In this document: positions 2,108 through 54,204 of the stretch, one piece after another
How positions within the stretch are numbered: the first letter of the stretch is position 1
Layout: every line of letters begins with the position of its first letter
Origin: an uncultured Myxococcales bacterium
Lineage (GTDB): Bacteria > Myxococcota > Myxococcia > Myxococcales > UBA5297
Direction of reading: 5' to 3'
DNA length: 64,000 nucleotides
Assembly (NCBI GenBank): GCA_937910285.1
Contig: CALEOC010000253.1
Coordinates: forward strand, 90,817 to 154,816
Made by a program: the position numbers and the translations under genes
Notes under the pieces: generated by a model
Told to the model about the DNA's origin: nothing
Database searches by the model: none
Seen by the model: the letters and a program-made list of their open reading frames with translations, nothing else

Positions 2108-2147
2108 CGACCGGGGGACTGAACAAGCGATCGGTCGCAGGGCGGTA

Positions 2148-2240
2148 GGGGCGCATGGCAATGCGCCCGTCGAGGAATCGAGCAGAGGCGCGGACAGGCT
2201 TCCCGAGGCGAGAGGTTTCCGAAGATCGCGCCCCGGCACT
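2148..2240 (+). promoter_or_regulatory. Conserved ~85-nt non-coding motif, copy 1 (ATGCGCCCGTCGAGRAATCGAGCA ... TCCGAAGAYCGCGCC), preceded by palindrome GGGCGCAT-GGCA-ATGCGCCC
   Basis: Near-identical sequence recurs at 9046-9125. The spacer between the two conserved blocks differs by 5 nt, so the conservation is at nucleotide level rather than peptide level. Confidence 0.3.
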
Positions 2241-3390
2241 AGCATGGTCCCCGATGCCACGCTTGCGATTCGCTGCCTGTCTTTTCGCCGCCGCCATTCT
2301 CGGTTGCCCTGCCGTCAACCGAACCATCGTCGAGGAGAGCCGCGGCGGACCGCGGCTCGGCGGCGAGCCCATCGCGATGGGGCGCTCTTTCGAGCAGCAC
2401 GGGGGCTCGCGCCACCGCGCCCTCCTCGTCGTGCGCACGCGCCCGGAGTGGGACGGGCTCTGGCGCGCGCCGCAGCGCGCACCGGCGCTCGACTTCTCCG
2501 AGCAGATGGTCCTGGTGGCCTTCGCGGGTCGCAAGCCGACGGCGGGCCACTCGATGCGCATCGAGCGCGTCGTGCGCGCCGGGGCCGAGCAGATCGTCGA
2601 GGTAGTCGAGAGCTCGCCGGCGCCTGGTTGTCCGCTTGCCCAAGGCCCGACCCATCCCTTCCACCTCGTCACGGTGCCGCGCTGGGAGGGAACGGTGCGC
2701 TTTGTCGTCGAGAGGCGTGTGCGGCCGGGCTGCCTCGCCCCGCCCGAGATCCGCCTTTCGTGCCGCACGGCCTCGCCCGAGCCATGGAGGAGCGCCGGGC
2801 CGGTGCTCCATCCGAGCCCCGGCGACCGGGTCGAATGTGAGGCGAGGGGAGAGGGCGTCGTCGCCTGGTCTTGGAGCTTGCTCGGCAGGCCTGAAGGCTC
2901 CGCGGCGCGGGTCGAGTCTGAGGGTCCGCGAGCCGTGCTGGGGACGGACAGGCCAGGCGCGTACCTACTCGGTGTGCAGGCGCGAGCGGCCGACGGGCAG
3001 GCGAGCCTGCAGCGCGTCGAGGTCGCAGCGGGCAGCGCCGCCTATCAGCTCGTTTTGAGGGCCGAGGAGCCGGACGGCGCTCTCGGCTTGAGCCTGGTTC
3101 TTGAGCGGGGAGGATCTCGCTGCGTCTTCGGCGCAGCCGACGCGCCGCCCTGGTGTGCGGGGAGCGGCGACGAGTACGAGTCGCGCTTCGAGGTGCCCGC
3201 GGGCGAGGGCGACTACCGCATCCTCGTCCAGCGCACGCCCGAGGCGCAGCCGAGCGCGACGGTCCTCGTGCGGCTGGGTGATTGGGAGATCGCGCGCGTC
3301 GAGGTGCCGTCGGACGGGGCGCGGTGGTCTGCATCCGGTGCGTGGGAGATGGGCAGGCTCGACTCGGAGCGCGCGCGGCTCGCTCGCTGA
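2155..3390 (+). CDS. Lipoprotein with PrcB_C-like domain (protease-complex subunit PrcB family); true start probably the internal MPRLRFAACLFAAAILGCPAV (~2254)
   Basis: An internal signal peptide with lipobox is present. The segment ALVAFAGRKPTAGHSMRIERV...PFHLVTVP matches the PrcB C-terminal domain pattern. The C-terminal half looks Ig-like. Confidence 0.45.
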   Translation: MAMRPSRNRAEARTGFPRREVSEDRAPALAWSPMPRLRFAACLFAAAILGCPAVNRTIVEESRGGPRLGGEPIAMGRSFEQHGGSRHRALLVVRTRPEWDGLWRAPQRAPALDFSEQMVLVAFAGRKPTAGHSMRIERVVRAGAEQIVEVVESSPAPGCPLAQGPTHPFHLVTVPRWEGTVRFVVERRVRPGCLAPPEIRLSCRTASPEPWRSAGPVLHPSPGDRVECEARGEGVVAWSWSLLGRPEGSAARVESEGPRAVLGTDRPGAYLLGVQARAADGQASLQRVEVAAGSAAYQLVLRAEEPDGALGLSLVLERGGSRCVFGAADAPPWCAGSGDEYESRFEVPAGEGDYRILVQRTPEAQPSATVLVRLGDWEIARVEVPSDGARWSASGAWEMGRLDSERARLAR

Positions 3391-3399
3391 GGACGTGAA

Positions 3400-3495
3400 G
3401 CTGCGTCGAAGAGCCCTTCGAGCGAGAGCCGGCGTCTCGGGGGACCGGATACAAGGGCCTTTTCGACTCCGCCTCACTCGTTCCTCGGGAGGCTG
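3400..3495. repeat. REP-like intergenic hairpin element, copy a (partial; ...GGGCCTTTTCGACTCCGCCTCACTCGTTCCTCGGGAGGC)
   Basis: It shares CGAAG.GCCC..TCGAC and the GCCTC(C/A)CTCGTTCCTCGGGAGGC hairpin with the copies at 28681-28785 and 28838-28927. It lies 10-100 nt downstream of the stop at 3390. Confidence 0.5.
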
Positions 3496-3628
3496 GGAGC
3501 GGGATGGCGAGCCGAGGTCAAGGTGATTTCGCGACAGACCTCGAGGGCGGTGGGCGCTGCTCTGGGCGCAGGCGTCGAGAGCGCTCTCGCCCGGGGTCGG
3601 CCCGCGGCCCGGTGCGCAGCGTTAGAGC

Positions 3629-4705
3629 ATGGCCCTGCCCATCGAACCCCCGCTCGCGCCGATGCTCGCCCGGCTGCAGGCCGACCTCCCGCTCGGCGAG
3701 GGCTGGCTGTACGAACCGAAGTGGGACGGGTTTCGCGCCATCGTCTTTCGCGAAGGCGAGAGGTTGCGACTCGTCAGCCGAAACGGACAGCCACTCGAGC
3801 GCTACTTCCCCGAGCTGATCGAGGCGCTGCGCCAAGCGACTCCGGTTCGGTGTGTGCTCGACGGCGAGATCGTCATCGAGACTTCGGCGGGCCTCGACTT
3901 CGACGCACTCCTCCAGCGCATCCACCCGGCGGCCTCGCGGGTGCGCAAGCTGTCGGTCGAGACTCCCGCCTCGTTCGTCGCCTTCGACCTGCTCGCCGTC
4001 GAGGAGAGGAGCCTGCTCGAGAAGCCGTTCTCGGAGCGGCGGCGTCTGCTCGAGCGCGTCCTGGAGGGCGGGCCGAGGGTCTATCTCACGGCGCAGACCT
4101 CCGACCCGGAGATCGCGCGGCGTTGGTACGAGCAGCTCGAGGGCGCGGGCATCGAGGGCGTGGTCGCCAAGCGGGCCGGGCAGGTCTACGTCCCGGGCGA
4201 GCGCGTGATGGTGAAGGTGAAGCACGAGCGCACCGCCGACTGCGTCATCGGCGGCTACCGGCCGGCGGCGAAGGGCGGGGGCGTCGGCTCCATCCTGCTT
4301 GGCCTCTACGACGCGCAGGGCGAGCTTGTCTACGTCGGCTTCGCCTCGGCGTTTTCGGCTCCGCAGCGTCGCGAGATCCTCGAGCGGCTGCGGCCCTTCG
4401 AGGGCCGCGCGGGATTTGCCGAGGGCAAGGGGCCCGGTGGACCGAGCCGCTGGAATCGCGGGCACAAGCTCGGCTTTGTCTCGGTCGCCCCGCGGCTCGT
4501 GTGCGAGGTGAAGCTCGACAAGCTGCAGGGCGAGCGATTTCGCCACGCGGCTCAGTTCCAGCGCTGGCGCCCGGACAAGGAGCCCCGGGAGTGCACCTAC
4601 GAGCAGCTCTCGCTGCCGCGAGGCGGCCGCCGCCCGATGCCGCTGGCGACACCCGGGGCTGAAGAAACCCGAGGGCTCGAGGCGATCGATGAAAAGGCGC
4701 GCTGA
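3629..4705 (+). CDS. lig: ATP-dependent DNA ligase (LigC/LigD ligase-domain type, standalone)
   Basis: The adenylation motif I KWDGFRA (KxDG, catalytic Lys) lies in EPKWDGFRAIVF. At 358 aa it is typical of short bacterial ATP ligases. The opposite-strand ORF 3518-4786 is an arginine-rich artefact. Confidence 0.85.
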   Translation: MALPIEPPLAPMLARLQADLPLGEGWLYEPKWDGFRAIVFREGERLRLVSRNGQPLERYFPELIEALRQATPVRCVLDGEIVIETSAGLDFDALLQRIHPAASRVRKLSVETPASFVAFDLLAVEERSLLEKPFSERRRLLERVLEGGPRVYLTAQTSDPEIARRWYEQLEGAGIEGVVAKRAGQVYVPGERVMVKVKHERTADCVIGGYRPAAKGGGVGSILLGLYDAQGELVYVGFASAFSAPQRREILERLRPFEGRAGFAEGKGPGGPSRWNRGHKLGFVSVAPRLVCEVKLDKLQGERFRHAAQFQRWRPDKEPRECTYEQLSLPRGGRRPMPLATPGAEETRGLEAIDEKAR

Positions 4706-8891: not shown

Positions 8892-9045
8892 GCGGCAGGG
8901 CTCGAACGACAAATCAGCGTCAAGGGCGCACGCCCCCGGGCTTGGTCAGGCACCTCACGCCGGCCGAGCCGGAACCAACCGGGGAGCCGAGGCCGCAGAA
9001 CCCGGACCCCAGGTCCGAATCGCGAAGCGATGGGCCGTGGGTTGG

Positions 9046-9125
9046 CCCATTTGCCATGCGCCCGTCGAGAAATCGAGCATCCGCTCGGCCGACACGAAGG
9101 CCGGCCCTCCGAAGACCGCGCCGCG
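9046..9125 (+). promoter_or_regulatory. Conserved ~85-nt non-coding motif, copy 2 (ATGCGCCCGTCGAGAAATCGAGCA ... TCCGAAGACCGCGCC)
   Basis: It matches 2148-2240. It sits in the 850-bp non-coding leader upstream of the PFOR gene. Confidence 0.3.
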
Positions 9126-25952: not shown

Positions 25953-26381
25953 TCAAGCTGGCAAGACCGCGAATCCCAGCTTCGAGGCGTTCACGCGTAC
26001 GCGGCGCTCCGCCGAGAGCATCGTCAAATTGCAGCCGGCTTCACGCTCGAACGCCACGGCGGTCGCCAGGTGGATGGCGTCGAGGGTTCGGAGGGGCTCG
26101 ACGGGAAAGGGCTCGCCGGCCCGCTGAAGGACTCTTGCGCTCATGTCGATGACCAAGCAGCCCGCGACGAATTCGCGAAACCAAGCCAACAGGCTCGAGC
26201 GCTCGTCGTCCGTAAACCTGCCGTCGAGGGAGGCTCGGAGCAGCACCCTCTCAACTTCGGCGATCGTCAAAGCCGAGGTAATCAGGTTGGGAAAGCCTCC
26301 GACTGGCTGAAGCAGGCGCGCGTCGTCGCTGAGCGCGACCTGTAATAGCGCGCTGCTCTCGACGTAGAGCACCGGTGTCAC
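25953..26381 (-). CDS. vapC: PIN-domain toxin (VapC-like)
   Basis: At 142 aa it shows the PIN pattern (LYVESSALL...EVERVL...LDAIHLATA). It overlaps the upstream antitoxin by 4 nt. Confidence 0.55.
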   Translation of the reverse strand: MTPVLYVESSALLQVALSDDARLLQPVGGFPNLITSALTIAEVERVLLRASLDGRFTDDERSSLLAWFREFVAGCLVIDMSARVLQRAGEPFPVEPLRTLDAIHLATAVAFEREAGCNLTMLSAERRVRVNASKLGFAVLPA

Positions 26382-26704
26382 GGGCGCTTGTCCTCGCGGA
26401 GATCATCGAGAATCTCCTGGGCGGCATTCTGGGGAAGCGCGACCTTGGGCCGCCGCCTGGCGAGTTGCCGGATGTGGGCGCGCAGGTCTTCCGGCGGAAC
26501 CATCGCGGGCTTGACGAAGCCGCTCTCGATGGCCCGCTGGAGCCGCACTTCGAAGGAGTCCGTGGCTTGGCCTGCGGTCTTCGGGGAACGGACCTCGGCG
26601 ACCACGCGACCGCGATCGGTCACCAGCACGACCTCGCCTCGTTGGACTTCGCGCAGATACTCACTGAGCTTGGCCTTGAACTCCCGGACCCCCGCGGTCT
26701 TCAT
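26378..26704 (-). CDS. Phd/YefM-family antitoxin
   Basis: MKTAGVREFKAKLSEYLREVQRGEVVLVTDRGRVVAEV matches the Phd/YefM N-terminus. It has an ATGA overlap with the toxin. Confidence 0.65.
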   Translation of the reverse strand: MKTAGVREFKAKLSEYLREVQRGEVVLVTDRGRVVAEVRSPKTAGQATDSFEVRLQRAIESGFVKPAMVPPEDLRAHIRQLARRRPKVALPQNAAQEILDDLREDKRP

Positions 26705-27047
26705 GCGCTGATTGTGGCCACCGATGACCACATTCGTTAGCCGTCGCCTCCCCTGCGGCCGGCCGTCCGGCTGGGAGCAAGCGTGTGTGCCGTTGCCAGC
26801 AATCGGCAGCGCCGCGCGGGCCTCGGGCGCGCCTTCGCGGGTGGACGAGCGGGTGCCGTCGCTCGGGGGAGCCGACCGCGCCCCGGCGCCGGCTGTGCGA
26901 TAGTCCGCGTCTGCTCATGAACCTCGAGCCGCTCGTCAAATCGCCGCCCTGGCTGCCGTCTTCGCGACCGTCACGCTCCAGCGGAATCCGGCAGCGCCCC
27001 ATGAGGACCGGCTGCTCGCGCGAGCTCATTCGCGAGGAGGTCTTGCG

Positions 27048-28625
27048 ATGCGCTTCTGGAATAGAAGAGCGGCTGCGGACGAGGCCGACAGCCCGGCCCG
27101 GCTGTTGACGCCCGCCGAGCGGCCCCGGCAGCCTTTCCCGCGCTTGGCGGCGCTCGCCGTGGGGCTGGGCGCGCTCGTCAACATCCCCATCCCCGAGAGC
27201 GCGGGGCTGGCGCTGGCGCCGGGCTTCGCCGTGGCCATCCTCGGCGCGGCGTCGATGGCCGCGTGGCTCGAGGAGCGCATCTACTACCGGATGGCGCGGC
27301 GCCCGATGCCGGCACGCCTGGCCTTAGGTGCGCTGCTGGCGCCGGTTGGCCTCGTGGCTGGCATCCTGCTGGCGGCGCTCCTCAGCCCGCTGGGAAAGGT
27401 GTTGGGCGACGAGGCGACGCTCGCGGTCGCGGTCTTCCTGGGCGCCTGGTGGCTCTCGATGGCCTCGCTCGGCAGCACCGTCATCCTGGTCATCGACGCC
27501 CTCGCCAGCATCGCGCGGCGGTTCCGCTCGCGAATCATCCTCGCCGTGCTCGGCTTGCTGCTACTCGTCTCCTCGGTCTCGGCCGCGGCGGTCTTCGCGG
27601 TCAGCCAAGCCATCAGCGGGGCGGTGGGCGCCGAGAAGGCGCACTTCAACGCAAACTTGTCCATCGGCTACGTCCGCATCGACCGCGACGCCGGCGCCAT
27701 CTTCTCGAAGGACGACACCTCGTCGCTCGTCGTCATGCTGCTCTGCTTGGTCACCGTCGTCGCCCTCCCCGCGCTCCTGAGCGCCTGCGGCAAGCTGGCC
27801 GACGCGGTCATGGAGCGCCTCCACCCGCTGGCGGCGGGCTTTCGCGCCATCGCCGCGGGCGACTTCGACGTGCGCGTCGAGGAGGCGGGCAGCGTCGAGA
27901 TCATCGACCTGAACCGCGGCTTCAACGCCATGGCCGCGCACCTCGGCGTCGCGACGCGGATGGAGCGCGCCTTCGGCACCTACCTCGGCAAGCAGGTGAT
28001 GGAGCGCATCCGGGCGCAGCACGGCGAGGCCTCGCTGCCGGCGGCCTCGCGCGAGGCGAGCGTCTTCTTCGCCGACGTGCGCGGCTTCACCGCGATGAGC
28101 GAGAAGCTCGAGCCCGCGCAGGTCTTGGCCGTGCTCAACCGCTACTTCGAGCGGGTCGTCGAGGTCATCGACGAGCACGAGGGCTACCTCAACAAGTTCA
28201 TCGGCGATGCGGTGGTGGTGGTCTTCAACGGCCCCATCGATCAGCCCGACCACGCCGAGCGCGCCGTGCGCTGCGCCCGCGCCCTGCTGCAGGCGGTGGC
28301 GGCGATGAACGCCGCGGGCGCCTTCGCCGACGTCGGCGGTCTGCAGGTCGGCGTGGGCCTCGCCACCGGCCCGGTCGTCGCCGGCAACCTCGGGTCGTCC
28401 AAGCAGATGGAGTACACGGTCATCGGCGACACGGTGAACCTCGCCTCGAGGCTCACCTCCAAGGCGCCTGAGGGCGAGGTCTGGGCGAGCGAGCAGACCG
28501 CAAAGAGCTTGCCGGCCGGAGAGGCGCAGGCGCTCGAGCCGATACGAGTCAAGGGCAAGGAGAAGCCGGTCGCGCCGTACCGGGTCTGGCCGAAGCCGGG
28601 CGGGGTAGAGGCTGCGGTGGGGTAG
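27048..28625 (+). CDS. Membrane-bound class III adenylate/guanylate cyclase with HAMP domain
   Basis: It has ~6 TM helices, a HAMP region (AAGFRAIAAGDFDVRVEE...LNRGFNAMAAHL), and a cyclase domain (VFFADVRGFTAMSE...FIGDAVVVVF...TGPVVAGNLGS). Confidence 0.85.
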   Translation: MRFWNRRAAADEADSPARLLTPAERPRQPFPRLAALAVGLGALVNIPIPESAGLALAPGFAVAILGAASMAAWLEERIYYRMARRPMPARLALGALLAPVGLVAGILLAALLSPLGKVLGDEATLAVAVFLGAWWLSMASLGSTVILVIDALASIARRFRSRIILAVLGLLLLVSSVSAAAVFAVSQAISGAVGAEKAHFNANLSIGYVRIDRDAGAIFSKDDTSSLVVMLLCLVTVVALPALLSACGKLADAVMERLHPLAAGFRAIAAGDFDVRVEEAGSVEIIDLNRGFNAMAAHLGVATRMERAFGTYLGKQVMERIRAQHGEASLPAASREASVFFADVRGFTAMSEKLEPAQVLAVLNRYFERVVEVIDEHEGYLNKFIGDAVVVVFNGPIDQPDHAERAVRCARALLQAVAAMNAAGAFADVGGLQVGVGLATGPVVAGNLGSSKQMEYTVIGDTVNLASRLTSKAPEGEVWASEQTAKSLPAGEAQALEPIRVKGKEKPVAPYRVWPKPGGVEAAVG

Positions 28626-28680
28626 GGACCGCCCGTCGTGCCCCACGGCCCGGAGCGCCTTCGAGCTGGCGTTTCCCGCG

Positions 28681-28785
28681 GCCCGCCCGCCCCCGATCGC
28701 CGAGAGCGGAGGCCGAGCTTGCGAGGCCGAAGTCGAAGGGCCTCTCGACTCCACCCCTTCGTTCCTCAGGAGGCTACGCTCGAGG
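28681..28785. repeat. REP-like double-hairpin element, copy b
   Basis: It reads GCCCGCCCCCGATCGCCGAGAGCGGAGGCCGAGCTTGCGAGGCCGAAGTCGAAGGGCCTCTCGACTCCACCCCTTCGTTCCTCAGGAGGC. It is in tandem with copy c. Confidence 0.55.
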
Positions 28786-28837
28786 TGAGCGGCGGTCGGG
28801 CCGAAGTCGAGCAACTGTCTCATTGGTCAAGAGCCCG

Positions 28838-28927
28838 AGCCCGCCCCCGGTCACCCCGAGCGCAGGCCCAGCTTGCGAGGCCGAAGTCGAGGGGCCTCGA
28901 CTTCGCCTCCCTCGTTCCTCGGGAGGC
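28838..28927. repeat. REP-like double-hairpin element, copy c (best preserved)
   Basis: Stem 1 is CGAAGTCGAGG-GGC-CCTCGACTTCG and stem 2 is GCCTCCC-TCGTTCC-TCGGGAGGC. Stem 2 ends exactly at the prs stop codon, so it is a probable bidirectional terminator between convergent genes. Confidence 0.55.
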
Positions 28928-29854
28928 CTACAGCTCGCTCTTCAAGTAATCGGCGAAGAGCCCGGCGACCGATTCGATCTCGAGCAGCGACGAGCGCAGC
29001 TCGAGCGCCCGCGGGTGGCTGTCGGTGCAGACGATGTGCTCGAAAAGGCCCGAACGCTGCAGCCGGCCCAGGGCGTCGCCCGGCAGCACGCCGTGCGTCG
29101 CGATGGCCGAGATGCTCGCCGCGCCGGCCGCCCGATAGGCGCGGGCGGCGTTGATGAGCGAGCCGCCGGTACGGATCATGTCGTCGTAGATGACGACGTG
29201 GGCGCCCTTGACGTGGGCGCTCACCGCGGTCACCTCGGTCGTGCCGTCCTCGTGCCGGCGCTTGAAGACGAACGAGGCGGTGACGCCCGAGTCGAGCGCC
29301 ATCCGCTCGACCCACTTCGCGCGGCCGGCGTCGGTGGCCGCGAGCACGAACCCCGGACCTGCGAGCCGCTGGGCCGCGCGCATGATGACCGGCGTGCCGC
29401 GCAGGTGCACCGGGCGGATGGCGCCCTCGAAGTAGAAGGGGATGCCCTCCGAGTGCAGGTCGAGCAGCACCACCCGGCTGCCGGTGGCCGGCACCGGAAT
29501 GGACGAAAGCAGCCGCGCCCGGGTCTTCGCCGTGACGATCTCGCGCGGCTTCGAGACCCGCTCCATCGTCGCGTAGCCGAAGAACGGGATGACCAGCGTC
29601 AGGCTGCGCACGTCCTCCTGCACGAGCCCGCAGGCGAGGTCGTAGAGCTCGAGCGTCTCGGTCTCGTTGATCGTCCCGCCGACCACCACCGCGTCGCGGC
29701 CGTCCACGTCGCTGAGGATGCGCTGGTAGTGCTCACCGTCGGGGAACTGCTTGCGCTCGAGCTGGCCGAGATCGAAGTCGGCGAGCGCGGCGATCTGGCC
29801 CTGCAGCTCGAGGTAGGAGCTGGTTGCGAAGACGAGCGGCTTGTCGTGCTTCAT
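28928..29854 (-). CDS. prs: Ribose-phosphate pyrophosphokinase (PRPP synthetase)
   Basis: Prs family: ...RKQFPDGEHYQRI..., a PRPP-binding loop VVIYDDMIRTGGSLINAA, 308 aa. Confidence 0.9.
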   Translation of the reverse strand: MKHDKPLVFATSSYLELQGQIAALADFDLGQLERKQFPDGEHYQRILSDVDGRDAVVVGGTINETETLELYDLACGLVQEDVRSLTLVIPFFGYATMERVSKPREIVTAKTRARLLSSIPVPATGSRVVLLDLHSEGIPFYFEGAIRPVHLRGTPVIMRAAQRLAGPGFVLAATDAGRAKWVERMALDSGVTASFVFKRRHEDGTTEVTAVSAHVKGAHVVIYDDMIRTGGSLINAARAYRAAGAASISAIATHGVLPGDALGRLQRSGLFEHIVCTDSHPRALELRSSLLEIESVAGLFADYLKSEL

Positions 29855-31326
29855 TGCTGGAGCTGCCTCGCTTTGAGAATGAGCCGGGTCTTGACGAGGT
29901 GGAGGGTCTCTTCGAGACCGGCCGGATACGAGTGAGGATTGAGAAAGCGCTTGATGCTCGGGTGCAGCATCGAGAGCTGGCTCCTCGTCCTTTCGCGCGC
30001 CTGGTCGAGTGGCGGTGGTTCGTAGACCTTTTGGCCGCCCCTGAATACCGGAACGAGCAGGTCTTCGCCCGGTGAATCTTCCGAGAAGCGCTGGCGGCGC
30101 GTCGCGTCGGAGGGGTCGACGATCGTCGGCGGGCTCGCGCCCGGCCCGAGCAGCTCGTCCCAGATCATGTCGCCGGCGAAGAGCCCGTTGGCGGTGAAGC
30201 GGCGCGTCTGCAGGATGCCGGGCGTGGTGGTCTTGGTGAGCTGCTCGGAGAGCTTGAGCCGATGCTCCCAGCGCCCACCGGGCTCGCGCACCGCCGACAG
30301 CTTGTAGATGCCGCCGAGCGCCGGCTGGTCGAAGGCCGTGGCTAGCCGCGTGCCCACGCCCCAGAGGTCGATGCGCGCGCCCTGCTCCTGGAGGCTCTCG
30401 ATGATCTGCTCGTCGAGGTCCCCGCTGGCGACGATCTTGGCGTTGGGGAAGCCCTCCTCGTCGAGGATGGCGCGGGCGCGGATGCTCAGGTACGCGAGGT
30501 CGCCGGAGTCGAGCCGGATGCCCAAGAGCTCGTGGCCATGCTCGCGCAGCCAGCGCCCGGTCTGTGCCGCGCGGCGCGTGCCCTCGAGGCTGTCAAAGGT
30601 GTCGACGAGCAAGATGCAGTTGTTGGGCATCGCCTCGGCGTAAGCCTGGAAGGCTTGCTGCTCGTGCTCGAAGGCCAGCACGAAGCTGTGCGCGTGCGTG
30701 CCGCGCACCGGGATGCCGAAGATCCTGCCGGCGAGCAGGTTGGAGGTCGCGTCGACGCCGCCGACGAAGGCGGCGCGGCACGAGGAGAGGCCTCCGTCGA
30801 CGCCCTGCGCGCGCCGCAGGCCGAACTCGACTACCGGCTGGTCCTTGGCGGCGAGCTTGACGCGCGCCGCCTTGGTCGCGACCAGGGTCTGGAAGTTGAT
30901 CAGCGTCAGCAGCGGCGTCTCGAGGAGCTGGCAGTGGAGGATGGGGCCTTTGACGCGCACCAACGGCTCCTGCGGGAAGACGACCGTGCCCTCGGGCACC
31001 GCGTCGAGGTCGCAGGCGAGCCGCAGGCCGCGCAGGTGATCGAGGAACGCCGGCCTGAAGAGCGGCTTGCCGTCGGCGCCGTTGAGCGAGGCGAGGTAGG
31101 CGAGGTCGTCGTCGTCGAAGCGCAGCGTCTCCACGTAGTCGACCGCCGGTCCCAGCCCGCAGGCGACCGCAAAGCCACCCTGGAACGGGTTCTCGCGAAA
31201 GTGCAGGTAGAAGACGGCCTCGCGCTCGGCGACGCCGGACTTCCAATACGCGTAGGCCATCGTCAGTTGATACAGGTCCGTCAGCAGCGCGAGCGATGGC
31301 CGGTACAGCTCACTCGGAACCTTCAT
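29851..31326 (-). CDS. pncB: Nicotinate phosphoribosyltransferase
   Basis: LLTDLYQLTMAYAYWKSG...GLRRAQGVDGG...GIRLDSGDL is diagnostic of NAPRTase. It has a 4-nt overlap with prs. Confidence 0.85.
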   Translation of the reverse strand: MKVPSELYRPSLALLTDLYQLTMAYAYWKSGVAEREAVFYLHFRENPFQGGFAVACGLGPAVDYVETLRFDDDDLAYLASLNGADGKPLFRPAFLDHLRGLRLACDLDAVPEGTVVFPQEPLVRVKGPILHCQLLETPLLTLINFQTLVATKAARVKLAAKDQPVVEFGLRRAQGVDGGLSSCRAAFVGGVDATSNLLAGRIFGIPVRGTHAHSFVLAFEHEQQAFQAYAEAMPNNCILLVDTFDSLEGTRRAAQTGRWLREHGHELLGIRLDSGDLAYLSIRARAILDEEGFPNAKIVASGDLDEQIIESLQEQGARIDLWGVGTRLATAFDQPALGGIYKLSAVREPGGRWEHRLKLSEQLTKTTTPGILQTRRFTANGLFAGDMIWDELLGPGASPPTIVDPSDATRRQRFSEDSPGEDLLVPVFRGGQKVYEPPPLDQARERTRSQLSMLHPSIKRFLNPHSYPAGLEETLHLVKTRLILKARQLQQ

Positions 31327-52594: not shown

Positions 52595-52974
52595 GGCGCA
52601 GGGCCCCCGGTCACCCCGAGCTCGTTGCCGGTCCCTTGGCCGGCTGTGACCTTGGAACCGGCAGGGCTGTCAGTTGGGAGCTTGTCGAGGGGCCTCGAGC
52701 GAAGCTGGCCCAGCCGTCTCTGGAGCCCAGAGCTCCGTCCGGTGCGGGCGAGTCGAAGGCCGCTCTCCGTTTTTCGCGAGCTCGGCGACAGGCGGGGCGC
52801 AACCGCAGCTTCGCCAGCGCCAAAGGCTTTCGGGCCGCCAGGGGCCTGGGAACCCACCCCGGCAGATTCTGGCCAGACTGGCAAGAATCTGGAGCCTGAA
52901 GCCTGAAGTCTGGGGTCTGCCGGCCGCCCCCGATCTCCCGGAGTCATTTTGGTTCCGGCTCGGCCGGCTTGGGC

Positions 52975-54204
52975 TTAGGCCGACGGCTCGAGCTCTTCGG
53001 GCTCGCTCTCCGGCTCCTCGTCGCCCCGCCGCCGCTCGAGGATCCACACGAGCAGCACGCCGAGCTCGAAGCAGACCGCCATCGGCACCGCCATCATCGC
53101 CAGGTTCACCGCGTCGCCGGTCGGGGTGATGATCGCCGCGAGGGTGACGCAGGCGACCAGCGCATAGCGCTGCGAGCTCCAGACCCAGCGAAAGCGCAGC
53201 ACCCCGAGCAGGGCGAGCACCGCCATGATCAGCGGCAGCTCGAAGATCGCGCCGAAAGCTATCTCGAGGACGAGCACGAGCGAGAGCTGCTCGCGCATCG
53301 AGAGCATCGGGCGGGTCCACTCCTCCTGGCCGAGCTCGCCGCTGGCGGCCGCGAGGCGGCGCTGGGCGCCCCAGACCGCCTCGAGGGTCTCTGGCTCGGT
53401 CGGCAGGGCTGCGGCGAGCGCGGTGACCGCCTCTTCGAGCTTGCGCGACGCCTCGCGGGTCGCACCCTCGGCGAGCAAGGCGCTGGCCTGCTGGTGCAGG
53501 TCGATGCTGCGGACGAGCTCCTGTCGCCGGCTGCCGGCGTTGGCCGCCACGGCCGAGTCGAGCAGCCGCGCGAAGCGCGACAGACGCTCGGTCAGCTCGA
53601 CCTTGCTCGAGGTGAGCTTCGAGGGGGCCGCGACCTTGCCCTCGCCGCCGCGGCCCAGGGCGTCGTCGGCCCGGCGGGCCAGCTCGAGGGCGCGGCCGTC
53701 GTCGCCGAGCACCAGCATCCGCGCCGCGTCGTCGCCGCGCGCCCGGGCGATCTCGATGCGCTCGCGCAGGCTGCCCGAGCCCCCCGGGGTCAGCAGGAAC
53801 TTGAACATCGGGGGCAGCACGACGAGGTAGCAGAAGAGCGCGCCGAGCAGGAAGAAGAGCGTCCCCAGCGTCACGAACGGCCCGAGGAGCCTGCGCTCGT
53901 GCTTGAGCAGCCCGGGCGCGACGAACTTCCAGAGTTGATAGAGCGCGACCGGCGTCGCCAGGAAGAGGCCGGCGTACAGGCCGACCTTCAGCAGGACGTT
54001 GAGCTCCTCGATGCCCGAGGTGTAGATGAGCGAGCGGCCCCCCTCGGGAAGCGCGGCGAGCACCGGCCGCATCAGCCACTCGAAGAGCTCGCGCGCAAAG
54101 CCCAGCGACAGGCCGCCGAGGACGAGCACGGCCAGCACCACGCGCAACAGGCGCGAGCGCAGCTCGGTCAGATGCTCGGTCAGGGTGAGCTTGAGGTCGT
54201 CCAA
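52975..54204 (-). CDS. tatC: Sec-independent translocase TatC with ~150-aa cytoplasmic insertion
   Basis: The N-terminus MDDLKLTLTEHLTELRSRLLRVVLAVLV and the C-terminal TM5-6 (LVLEIAFGAIFELPLIMAVLALLGV) match TatC. Between TM4 and TM5 lies an Ala/Arg/Glu-rich helical insert absent from canonical ~250-aa TatC. Confidence 0.8.
   Translation of the reverse strand: MDDLKLTLTEHLTELRSRLLRVVLAVLVLGGLSLGFARELFEWLMRPVLAALPEGGRSLIYTSGIEELNVLLKVGLYAGLFLATPVALYQLWKFVAPGLLKHERRLLGPFVTLGTLFFLLGALFCYLVVLPPMFKFLLTPGGSGSLRERIEIARARGDDAARMLVLGDDGRALELARRADDALGRGGEGKVAAPSKLTSSKVELTERLSRFARLLDSAVAANAGSRRQELVRSIDLHQQASALLAEGATREASRKLEEAVTALAAALPTEPETLEAVWGAQRRLAAASGELGQEEWTRPMLSMREQLSLVLVLEIAFGAIFELPLIMAVLALLGVLRFRWVWSSQRYALVACVTLAAIITPTGDAVNLAMMAVPMAVCFELGVLLVWILERRRGDEEPESEPEELEPSA

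Follow-up and report, generated by a model that had tools for sequence, protein, structure and literature searches.

A probable BIME-like cluster of GTAG-tagged palindromic repeats between convergent cyclase and prs genes of an uncultured Myxococcales bacterium

What is the repeated, hairpin-rich DNA that lies between a cyclase gene and prs in an uncultured Myxococcales bacterium: a terminator shared by two convergent genes, a MITE, a set of RNA genes, a local duplication, or part of a dispersed repeat family? We addressed this question in a stretch of 64,000 nucleotides, hereafter the window, from a MAG that occurs in fermentation and bioreactor metagenomes. Here, a 302-nt spacer separates a HAMP/guanylate-cyclase-domain gene (27048-28625, + strand; domains from Pfam) from prs (28928-29854, - strand). 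The spacer carries two direct copies of a ~100-nt sequence, A (28685-28782) and B (28839-28937), which are 154 nt apart and 84% identical over 101 nt (E=2e-20), in agreement with an earlier note on this DNA that had described two copies. The indels between them measure 1-2 nt, and the similarity is therefore not coding; for the core motifs, shuffled sequences gave an expectation of 0 chance matches. Our analyses indicate that the DNA at 28626-28940 is very probably a cluster of the BIME kind, built from palindromic REP-type units with a GTAG tag, which belong to a modular family abundant in this uncultured Myxococcales lineage.

Anatomy of the spacer copies and of the family unit

The spacer is composed of the following parts.

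About 28679-28803, + strand: copy A, in which two REP-like units make a complete head-to-head dimer, with the short inverted arms CGGCCCGCCCGCC / GGCGGTCGGGCCG closing it.
28695-28728, + strand: left unit of copy A, made up of flank GATCGCCGAGAGC, a degenerate tag (GGAG by mutation) and a short hairpin of class X1, GGCCGAGCTTGCGAGGCC.
28728-28752, no strand assigned: central palindrome H1 of copy A (CGAAGTCGAAGG..CTCGACTCC), made by the 3' tails of both inverted units.
28752-28795, - strand: right unit of copy A, CCGCTCACCTCGAGC-GTAG-CCTCCTGAGGAACGAAGGGG.
28803-28834, + strand: spacer module GAAGTCGAGCAACTGTCTC...TCAAGAGC, matched here with 0 mismatches and recurrent within the family, being present also in loci L080, L029 and L013 (reverse strand).
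28836-28927, + strand: copy B, a dimer in which the end of prs replaces the right-hand flank.
28847-28882, + strand: left unit of copy B, CCGGTCACCCCGAGC, with tag GCAG (a mutated GTAG) and hairpin GGCCCAGCTTGCGAGGCC.
28882-28892/28895-28905, no strand assigned: H1 of copy B, a perfect 11-bp palindrome CGAAGTCGAGG / CCTCGACTTCG, 100% complementary.
28905-28930, - strand: H2 of copy B at 28905-28927, GCCTCCC-TCGTTCCTC-GGGAGGC (GCCTCCC-GAGGAACGA-GGGAGGC), directly after the prs stop.

The two adjacent stem-loops reported previously for copy B were found at their expected places (H1, 28882-28905; H2, 28905-28927), and the element does end at the prs stop, as had been claimed, with the last base of H2 (28927) abutting the stop codon (CTA on the + strand, 28928-28930). 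The gene end itself, GAGCTG-TAG, mimics the family tag GAGC-GTAG, and H2 directly follows it. On the minus strand, which is the prs-sense strand, copy B forms three hairpins and folds better than 200/200 shuffles (z=-3.5). In copy A the H2 stem is degenerate and the fold z-score is ~0. Neither copy possesses the outer inverted repeats that are found elsewhere in the family. The partial CCGAAGTCGAG copy that the earlier note saw between A and B is present as sequence, but it belongs to the separate recurrent module GAAGTCGAGCAACTGTCTC (28803-28821), which is the one shared with the three loci listed above.

The earlier note took the unit to be an element of ~90-100 nt. The real unit is a GTAG-tagged hairpin module of ~50 nt, which is used in inverted pairs and in longer composites. 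This basic unit reads GGTCAsCCCGAGC-GTAG-(GC-rich hairpin)-CGRAGTCGAGGG; family units are also written as GAGCGTAG-hairpin units. The hairpin is a GC-rich stem-loop of 4-11 bp that comes in at least five interchangeable sequence classes, each self-complementary, with the stems CCTCCC/GGGAGG (H2), CTCCCG/CGGGAG, AGGC/GCCT, GCC/GGC and others. H2 combines a 7-bp stem (GCCTCCC/GGGAGGC) with a 9-nt loop, while the stems of classes X2 and X4 measure 5-11 bp and that of X1 4 bp. All left-unit classes begin with GTAG. In a regex-based set of 108 units, every hairpin class closes as G(tag)...C, with the last G of the tag paired to a C, and the tag is thus not wholly unpaired. In 43/61 copies H2 is directly followed by CTAC, which is GTAG read on the opposite strand, with GCAG and GTCG as tag variants, and the flank TACGCTCGGGGTGAGCGGG after H2 is 70-87% conserved; both observations concern positions that the search pattern did not cover.

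The commonest arrangement consists of two units head-to-head with GTAG outward, which gives the double hairpin of the earlier note, the hairpins of the two units usually being of different classes. The 3' tails pair to form H1 and the 5' flanks pair to form an inner inverted repeat or outer stem, so that one strand of an intact element adopts the fold of a long, branched hairpin. Extra outer inverted repeats, CT(G/C)AAGAGGTGTCGAAGAATC ... GATTTCGCGACACCTCTT(G/C)AG, are present on about half of the copies and extend them to elements of 140-230 nt. These outer repeats were found on 34 distinct long-form copies, some of them without H2. The long form is typically ~170 nt, with full-length borders CTG-AAGAGG...CCTCTT-GAG (the hyphens mark the borders), and an intact long-form copy folded as ssDNA gave z=-5.4 relative to shuffles. 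The stem of H2 is paired in 94.5% of cells, with a few compensatory (double-sided) changes and a score reached by 2/500 shuffles. Compensatory changes in the outer repeats are seen in L066, and not generally. Further variation is provided by tandem arrays of H2 units with a period of ~60 nt (L014/L074, L059 and L060), by an alternative right flank, GCTCCTAACCAACAGC, in some copies, and by truncations and mosaics.

Relatives of the spacer copies occur elsewhere in the window and in the collected loci.

3396-3545, + strand: a decayed but complete long-form element, with outer inverted repeats at 3396-3425 and 3522-3545 and an H2 unit at 3471-3493.
52603-52700, + strand: a mosaic relative made of the left flank CCCCCGGTCACCCCGAGC, the reversed 'alternative flank' GCTGTCAGTTGGGAGC, a TT joint and GTCGAGGGGCC.
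52656-52690 in the window, and L073 1262, L024 11473, L023 4681 and L032 (-) 1203: 'hairpin-less' junctions.

The first of these had been taken for a partial copy at 3400-3495, a description that the outer inverted repeats overturn. It lies between the PrcB_C-domain gene (2155-3390) and the neighbouring ATP-dependent DNA ligase gene (3629-4705), and is present in every strain sampled. Its stems are decayed (fold z-score ~0), and 3423-3493 holds a 31-nt core with 93.5% identity to the spacer copies. The weaker similarity previously placed at 52600-52720 proved to be the mosaic relative, in which blocks of 19/19 (52603-52621) and 15/15 (52684-52698) are exact and the GTAG-hairpin cassette is absent. 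In such 'hairpin-less' units, 2-3 nt separate the conserved GAGC flank from GTCGAGGGG, as in GAGC-TT-GTCGAGGGG; a loose regex for them returned mostly noise and a handful of real cases. They look as if the GTAG-hairpin cassette were missing or had been cut out, and they could mark empty sites. One strain (ERZ922848) departs from the window sequence precisely where a minus-strand gene, 52975-54204, ends (window ~52980; L090 2525 onward), and has a small ORF and an AbiEii-domain gene there instead.

Distribution, copy number and relation to transcription

Both sequence collections were scanned with the pattern CGACT-N7-10-TCGTTCCTCNGGAGGC. Among 185,579 species genomes, 5 true members were found in 2 other Myxococcales MAGs, all at non-orthologous sites, together with 4 chance matches. 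The metagenome scan yielded 71 stretches, mostly from one population of ~7x coverage in assembly UOOR01. Merging of duplicates left 62 distinct loci with unrelated flanking genes, with 52 strict matches in UOOR01 alone. The elements thus form a dispersed family of small REP/BIME-like repeats, as the earlier note had suspected, and not a duplicated gene 3' end. Copies A and B lie in direct orientation 154 nt apart, which would speak for a mere tandem duplication at this site, or for the duplicated 3' end of a gene that other loci resemble by chance; given the 62 distinct loci with unrelated flanks in several genomes and the shuffle expectation of 0 for the motifs, we attach virtually no probability to this explanation.

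The earlier note's view of the family as genome-specific is not supported: it is common to four or more populations or MAGs, between which orthologous genes share only ~70% nucleotide identity. The orthologous genes of the UOOR01 organism share only 69-73% nucleotide identity with the window, yet this organism has the same H2 unit. In 404 kb of flanking DNA that had not been selected for the pattern, we counted ~64 generic units and ~30 H2-type units per Mb; extrapolation from the former value indicates that a genome probably contains a few hundred units.

At least 53 of the 62 loci are intergenic according to a GC3-based gene call. Where both neighbours were called, the contexts were 14 convergent, 22 tandem and 6 divergent, compared with 10.3/22.8/8.8 expected from the background of intergenic regions, which is not a significant difference (p=0.33), and between tandem genes the element has the same orientation as the genes in 10 cases and the opposite orientation in 12. 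This random orientation, together with the context statistics, argues against a strand-specific relation to transcription, and the 3'-of-gene bias that the earlier note had proposed to look for is not significant in our sample.

These data bear on the earlier proposal of a bidirectional intrinsic terminator. If the element served the convergently arranged cyclase and prs genes mainly in this way, or by stabilising their 3' UTRs, this would account for the stable GC-rich hairpins directly downstream of both genes, for the fold of the prs-sense strand of copy B, which surpasses all 200 shuffles (z=-3.5), and for the slight excess of convergent over divergent contexts (14 vs 6); moreover, known REPs can have such a side effect (PMC3733652). 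However, the hairpins are not followed by a T/U tract on either strand, with no T run after H2 or after the third minus-strand hairpin, and a terminator scan found nothing at the element. The contexts match the background and the orientation is random, copies also occur between divergent genes, and a second strain has entirely different repeats at the prs 3' site. The loops and flanks are conserved as well, which a terminator does not need. We therefore consider a mainly terminating or stabilising function unlikely, though it is the least improbable of the rival explanations.

A second functional explanation would be that the copies are genes for structured small RNAs, or RNAs that regulate in cis. 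In its favour, G-U pairs occur on the minus strand of copy B, and H2 shows weak covariation. On the other hand, the Rfam comparison suggested by the earlier note found no match that reached the gathering score, either in the window or in ten loci, and only chance-level matches on the region at E up to 10. No promoter-like sites were found at the element, both orientations relative to genes are equally common, the family forms tandem arrays, truncations and mosaics, and hundreds of copies are estimated per genome. An RNA function of this kind appears very improbable.

Turnover at prs and the question of mobility

The repeat content at the 3' end of prs differs between near-identical strains. 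The window strain, as well as L001 and L002, has copies A and B downstream of prs. A second strain with 99.4% identical flanks, represented by four independent assemblies (L003, L095, L096 and L097), has instead a second GTAG repeat composite, GTAGGGGCGCATGGCAATGCGCCC + GCCGGCCTTCGTGTCGGC. In a third lineage (L098-L101), prs is followed by a tandem array of this second repeat with a period of ~118 nt. Six of the seven prs contigs in L095-L101 end 34-91 nt past the prs stop, as repeats would lead one to expect; those at this spacer systematically break short-read assemblies. The family thereby accounts for metagenome contigs that break right after prs and at similar spacers.

The second GTAG-tagged family, GGTAGGGGCGCATGGCAATGCGCCCGTCGAGGAATCG, is often joined to the GCCGGCCTTCGTGTCGGC hairpin and gave 13 strict matches in 757 kb of loci. 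Its sites include window 2144-2180 and 9040-9125, L003 2190-2330, L098 4928-5307 and L023 ~960-1010, and in L023 it is combined with an H2 unit. The called ATG of the PrcB_C-domain gene lies inside a hairpin of this second family and other assemblies call a 378-aa product; from the position of this ATG, the true start is probably downstream.

Several other observations were made. In strain 2 (L003), ~1.5 kb of the cyclase gene, corresponding to window 26838-28318 and thus to most of the gene, is missing, and the 3' end that it kept (28318-28631) is only 92% identical to the window. The lower identity of this segment is suggestive of recombination involving a diverged allele. In the window, a PhdYeFM antitoxin and PIN-domain toxin pair (25953-26704, - strand) lies immediately upstream of the cyclase gene. 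Within the NAPRTase gene (window 30238-31031), L001 (GCA_002408385.1, DHSB01000179.1) is rearranged relative to the window and L002, which is probably a mis-assembly in this MAG. An apparent 191-nt insertion in L091 turned out to be a scaffold gap of Ns.

How might such units have spread? GTAG-tagged REPs are defined by a terminal GTAG, 6-13-bp stems, alternative complementary stems, head-to-head dimers, clusters and an extragenic position (Di Nocera 2013; PMC3733652). The units described here are likewise small palindromes with short loops and a terminal GTAG, present at high copy number outside genes and arranged in head-to-head dimers and clusters. REPINs, which consist of two inverted REPs, are thought to be mobilised by RAYT transposases (PMC3337134), and the defining partner of a REPIN is a RAYT gene flanked by repeats (PMC5581495). 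By analogy, the Myxococcales units would be mobile DNA of a non-autonomous kind, spreading in the form of single-stranded hairpins after cleavage next to the GTAG tag by a RAYT-type Y1/HUH transposase or a functional analogue, and copy B may owe its position to insertion 3' of the prs end, which resembles GTAG. We put this mechanism forward tentatively, at somewhat less than an even chance.

Several points count against the REP reading and such mobility. In the 0.85 Mb formed by the window and ~7 kb of DNA flanking each of the 62 copies on both sides, no RAYT or Y1 transposase was found, whether by tblastn with the verified sequence of E. coli TnpA-REP, by a motif regex, or with an HMM of 120 enterobacterial RAYTs run against six-frame ORFs; this negative result is weak, since the HMM is enterobacterial and the search covers 0.85 Mb. 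One weak tblastn match, in L077, fell on the wrong strand of a DnaJ-like gene. Neither a clean empty site nor a target duplication was recovered among the loci examined, and the copy borders showed no convincing direct repeats of the target-site duplication type. The window copies are decayed, with the tags GGAG and GCAG and with fold z-scores of ~0 for copy A and for the copy at 3400. The extreme conservation of H2, moreover, arises in part from ascertainment by the search pattern.

The outer repeats raise the alternative of a classical MITE, which derives from an insertion sequence by internal deletion, is bounded by terminal inverted repeats and is mobilised by a DDE transposase, with a target-site duplication as the result. 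The long forms of 140-230 nt with ~14-20-nt terminal inverted repeats, CT(G/C)AAGAGGTGTCG, and the long hairpins formed by intact copies fit this description, and the TGA that most copies show at both of their borders could represent a duplication of 3 bp. The TGA can, however, equally belong to the inverted repeat, and it differs between the ends in several copies. No transposase gene lies between distant outer-repeat pairs in the fetched loci; these pairs enclose SurA-like, radical SAM and ABC transporter genes, and were rejected as insertion-sequence ends because the enclosed genes are housekeeping genes. Furthermore, copies A and B of the window do not have outer repeats, and the internal units bear the REP-type GTAG-hairpin signature. 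A MITE identity for the element is therefore rather improbable, although a DDE-type MITE origin of the outer repeats is possible.

Another possibility would be a REPIN-like population of Myxococcota in which GTAG-hairpin cassettes are interchangeable between conserved flanks, and which is moved, or maintained by the host, through a non-RAYT enzyme or mechanism. The near-identity of units across genera, the 'hairpin-less' versions and the lack of a nearby RAYT would fit this scenario, which we regard as doubtful.

With respect to the biology of cyclase and prs, the BIME-like cluster is probably only a set of 3'-UTR hairpins. It could plausibly serve as a 3'-UTR hairpin barrier, and the stable hairpins in the two 3' UTRs would probably act as 3' exonuclease barriers or weak terminators, as secondary effects. 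Liang, Rudd and Deutscher (2015) reportedly observed that a REP within ~15 nt of a stop codon lowers the expression of the upstream gene, and copy B, by its position, would qualify as such a case.

Comparison with known repeat systems

Our findings add a REP/BIME-type repeat family to Myxococcota, a phylum for which we found no description of such repeats in the literature searched. In that literature, REP-associated tyrosine transposases and Myxococcus were not mentioned together in any paper, and nothing specific on myxobacterial REPs, RAYTs or MITEs was found; myxobacteria and REPs appeared together only in passing, in a natural-product screening study. Annotators should be wary of assigning ORFs or small RNAs to such spacers. 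Should a cognate transposase come to light, the way in which hairpins vary like cassettes between fixed flanks would offer a useful natural test of RAYT-type recognition.

With Rho-independent terminators, the elements share stable GC-rich hairpins directly 3' of genes, but they lack a U-tract, their loops and flanks are conserved in sequence, and they form a dispersed family without orientation preference. Bacterial MITEs include the Correia elements of Neisseria, ERIC/IRU and Nezha. These are similar to the present elements in being non-coding, intergenic and 100-200 nt long, with terminal inverted repeats and the capacity to fold into long hairpins; in the Myxococcales family, by contrast, a target duplication is not demonstrable, a parent insertion sequence was not found, and the internal GTAG-hairpins are typical of REPs. 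The BIMEs of E. coli are mosaics of REP Y and Z units with other short motifs, and BOX elements are found in Streptococcus pneumoniae. Both resemble the family in their mosaics of recurrent short modules, in the variable number and tandem arrays of these modules in spacers, and in a content that varies between strains at a given site. Sequences and hosts are nevertheless unrelated, and some of the present composites add an outer inverted-repeat pair.

The closest resemblance is to the GTAG REP super-family and REPINs, such as the E. coli REPs, the Pseudomonas REPINs and the Stenotrophomonas SMAGs (Di Nocera 2013, PMC3733652; Bertels and Rainey 2011, PMC3116915, PMC3337134), which are likewise extragenic, GC-rich GTAG stem-loops. 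Shared features further comprise head-to-head dimers with the capacity to form one larger hairpin, sub-families whose complementary stems differ in sequence, clustering, and a copy number per genome in the tens to hundreds. Among the differences, no RAYT was found near any copy, the H2 loop is 9 nt and the host is an uncultured Myxococcales lineage. The conservation of ~13-nt flanks on both sides of the hairpin across classes is unusual for classical REPs. Even with these differences, the family belongs to the known REP/BIME class of bacterial intergenic repeats and is not a new kind of element.
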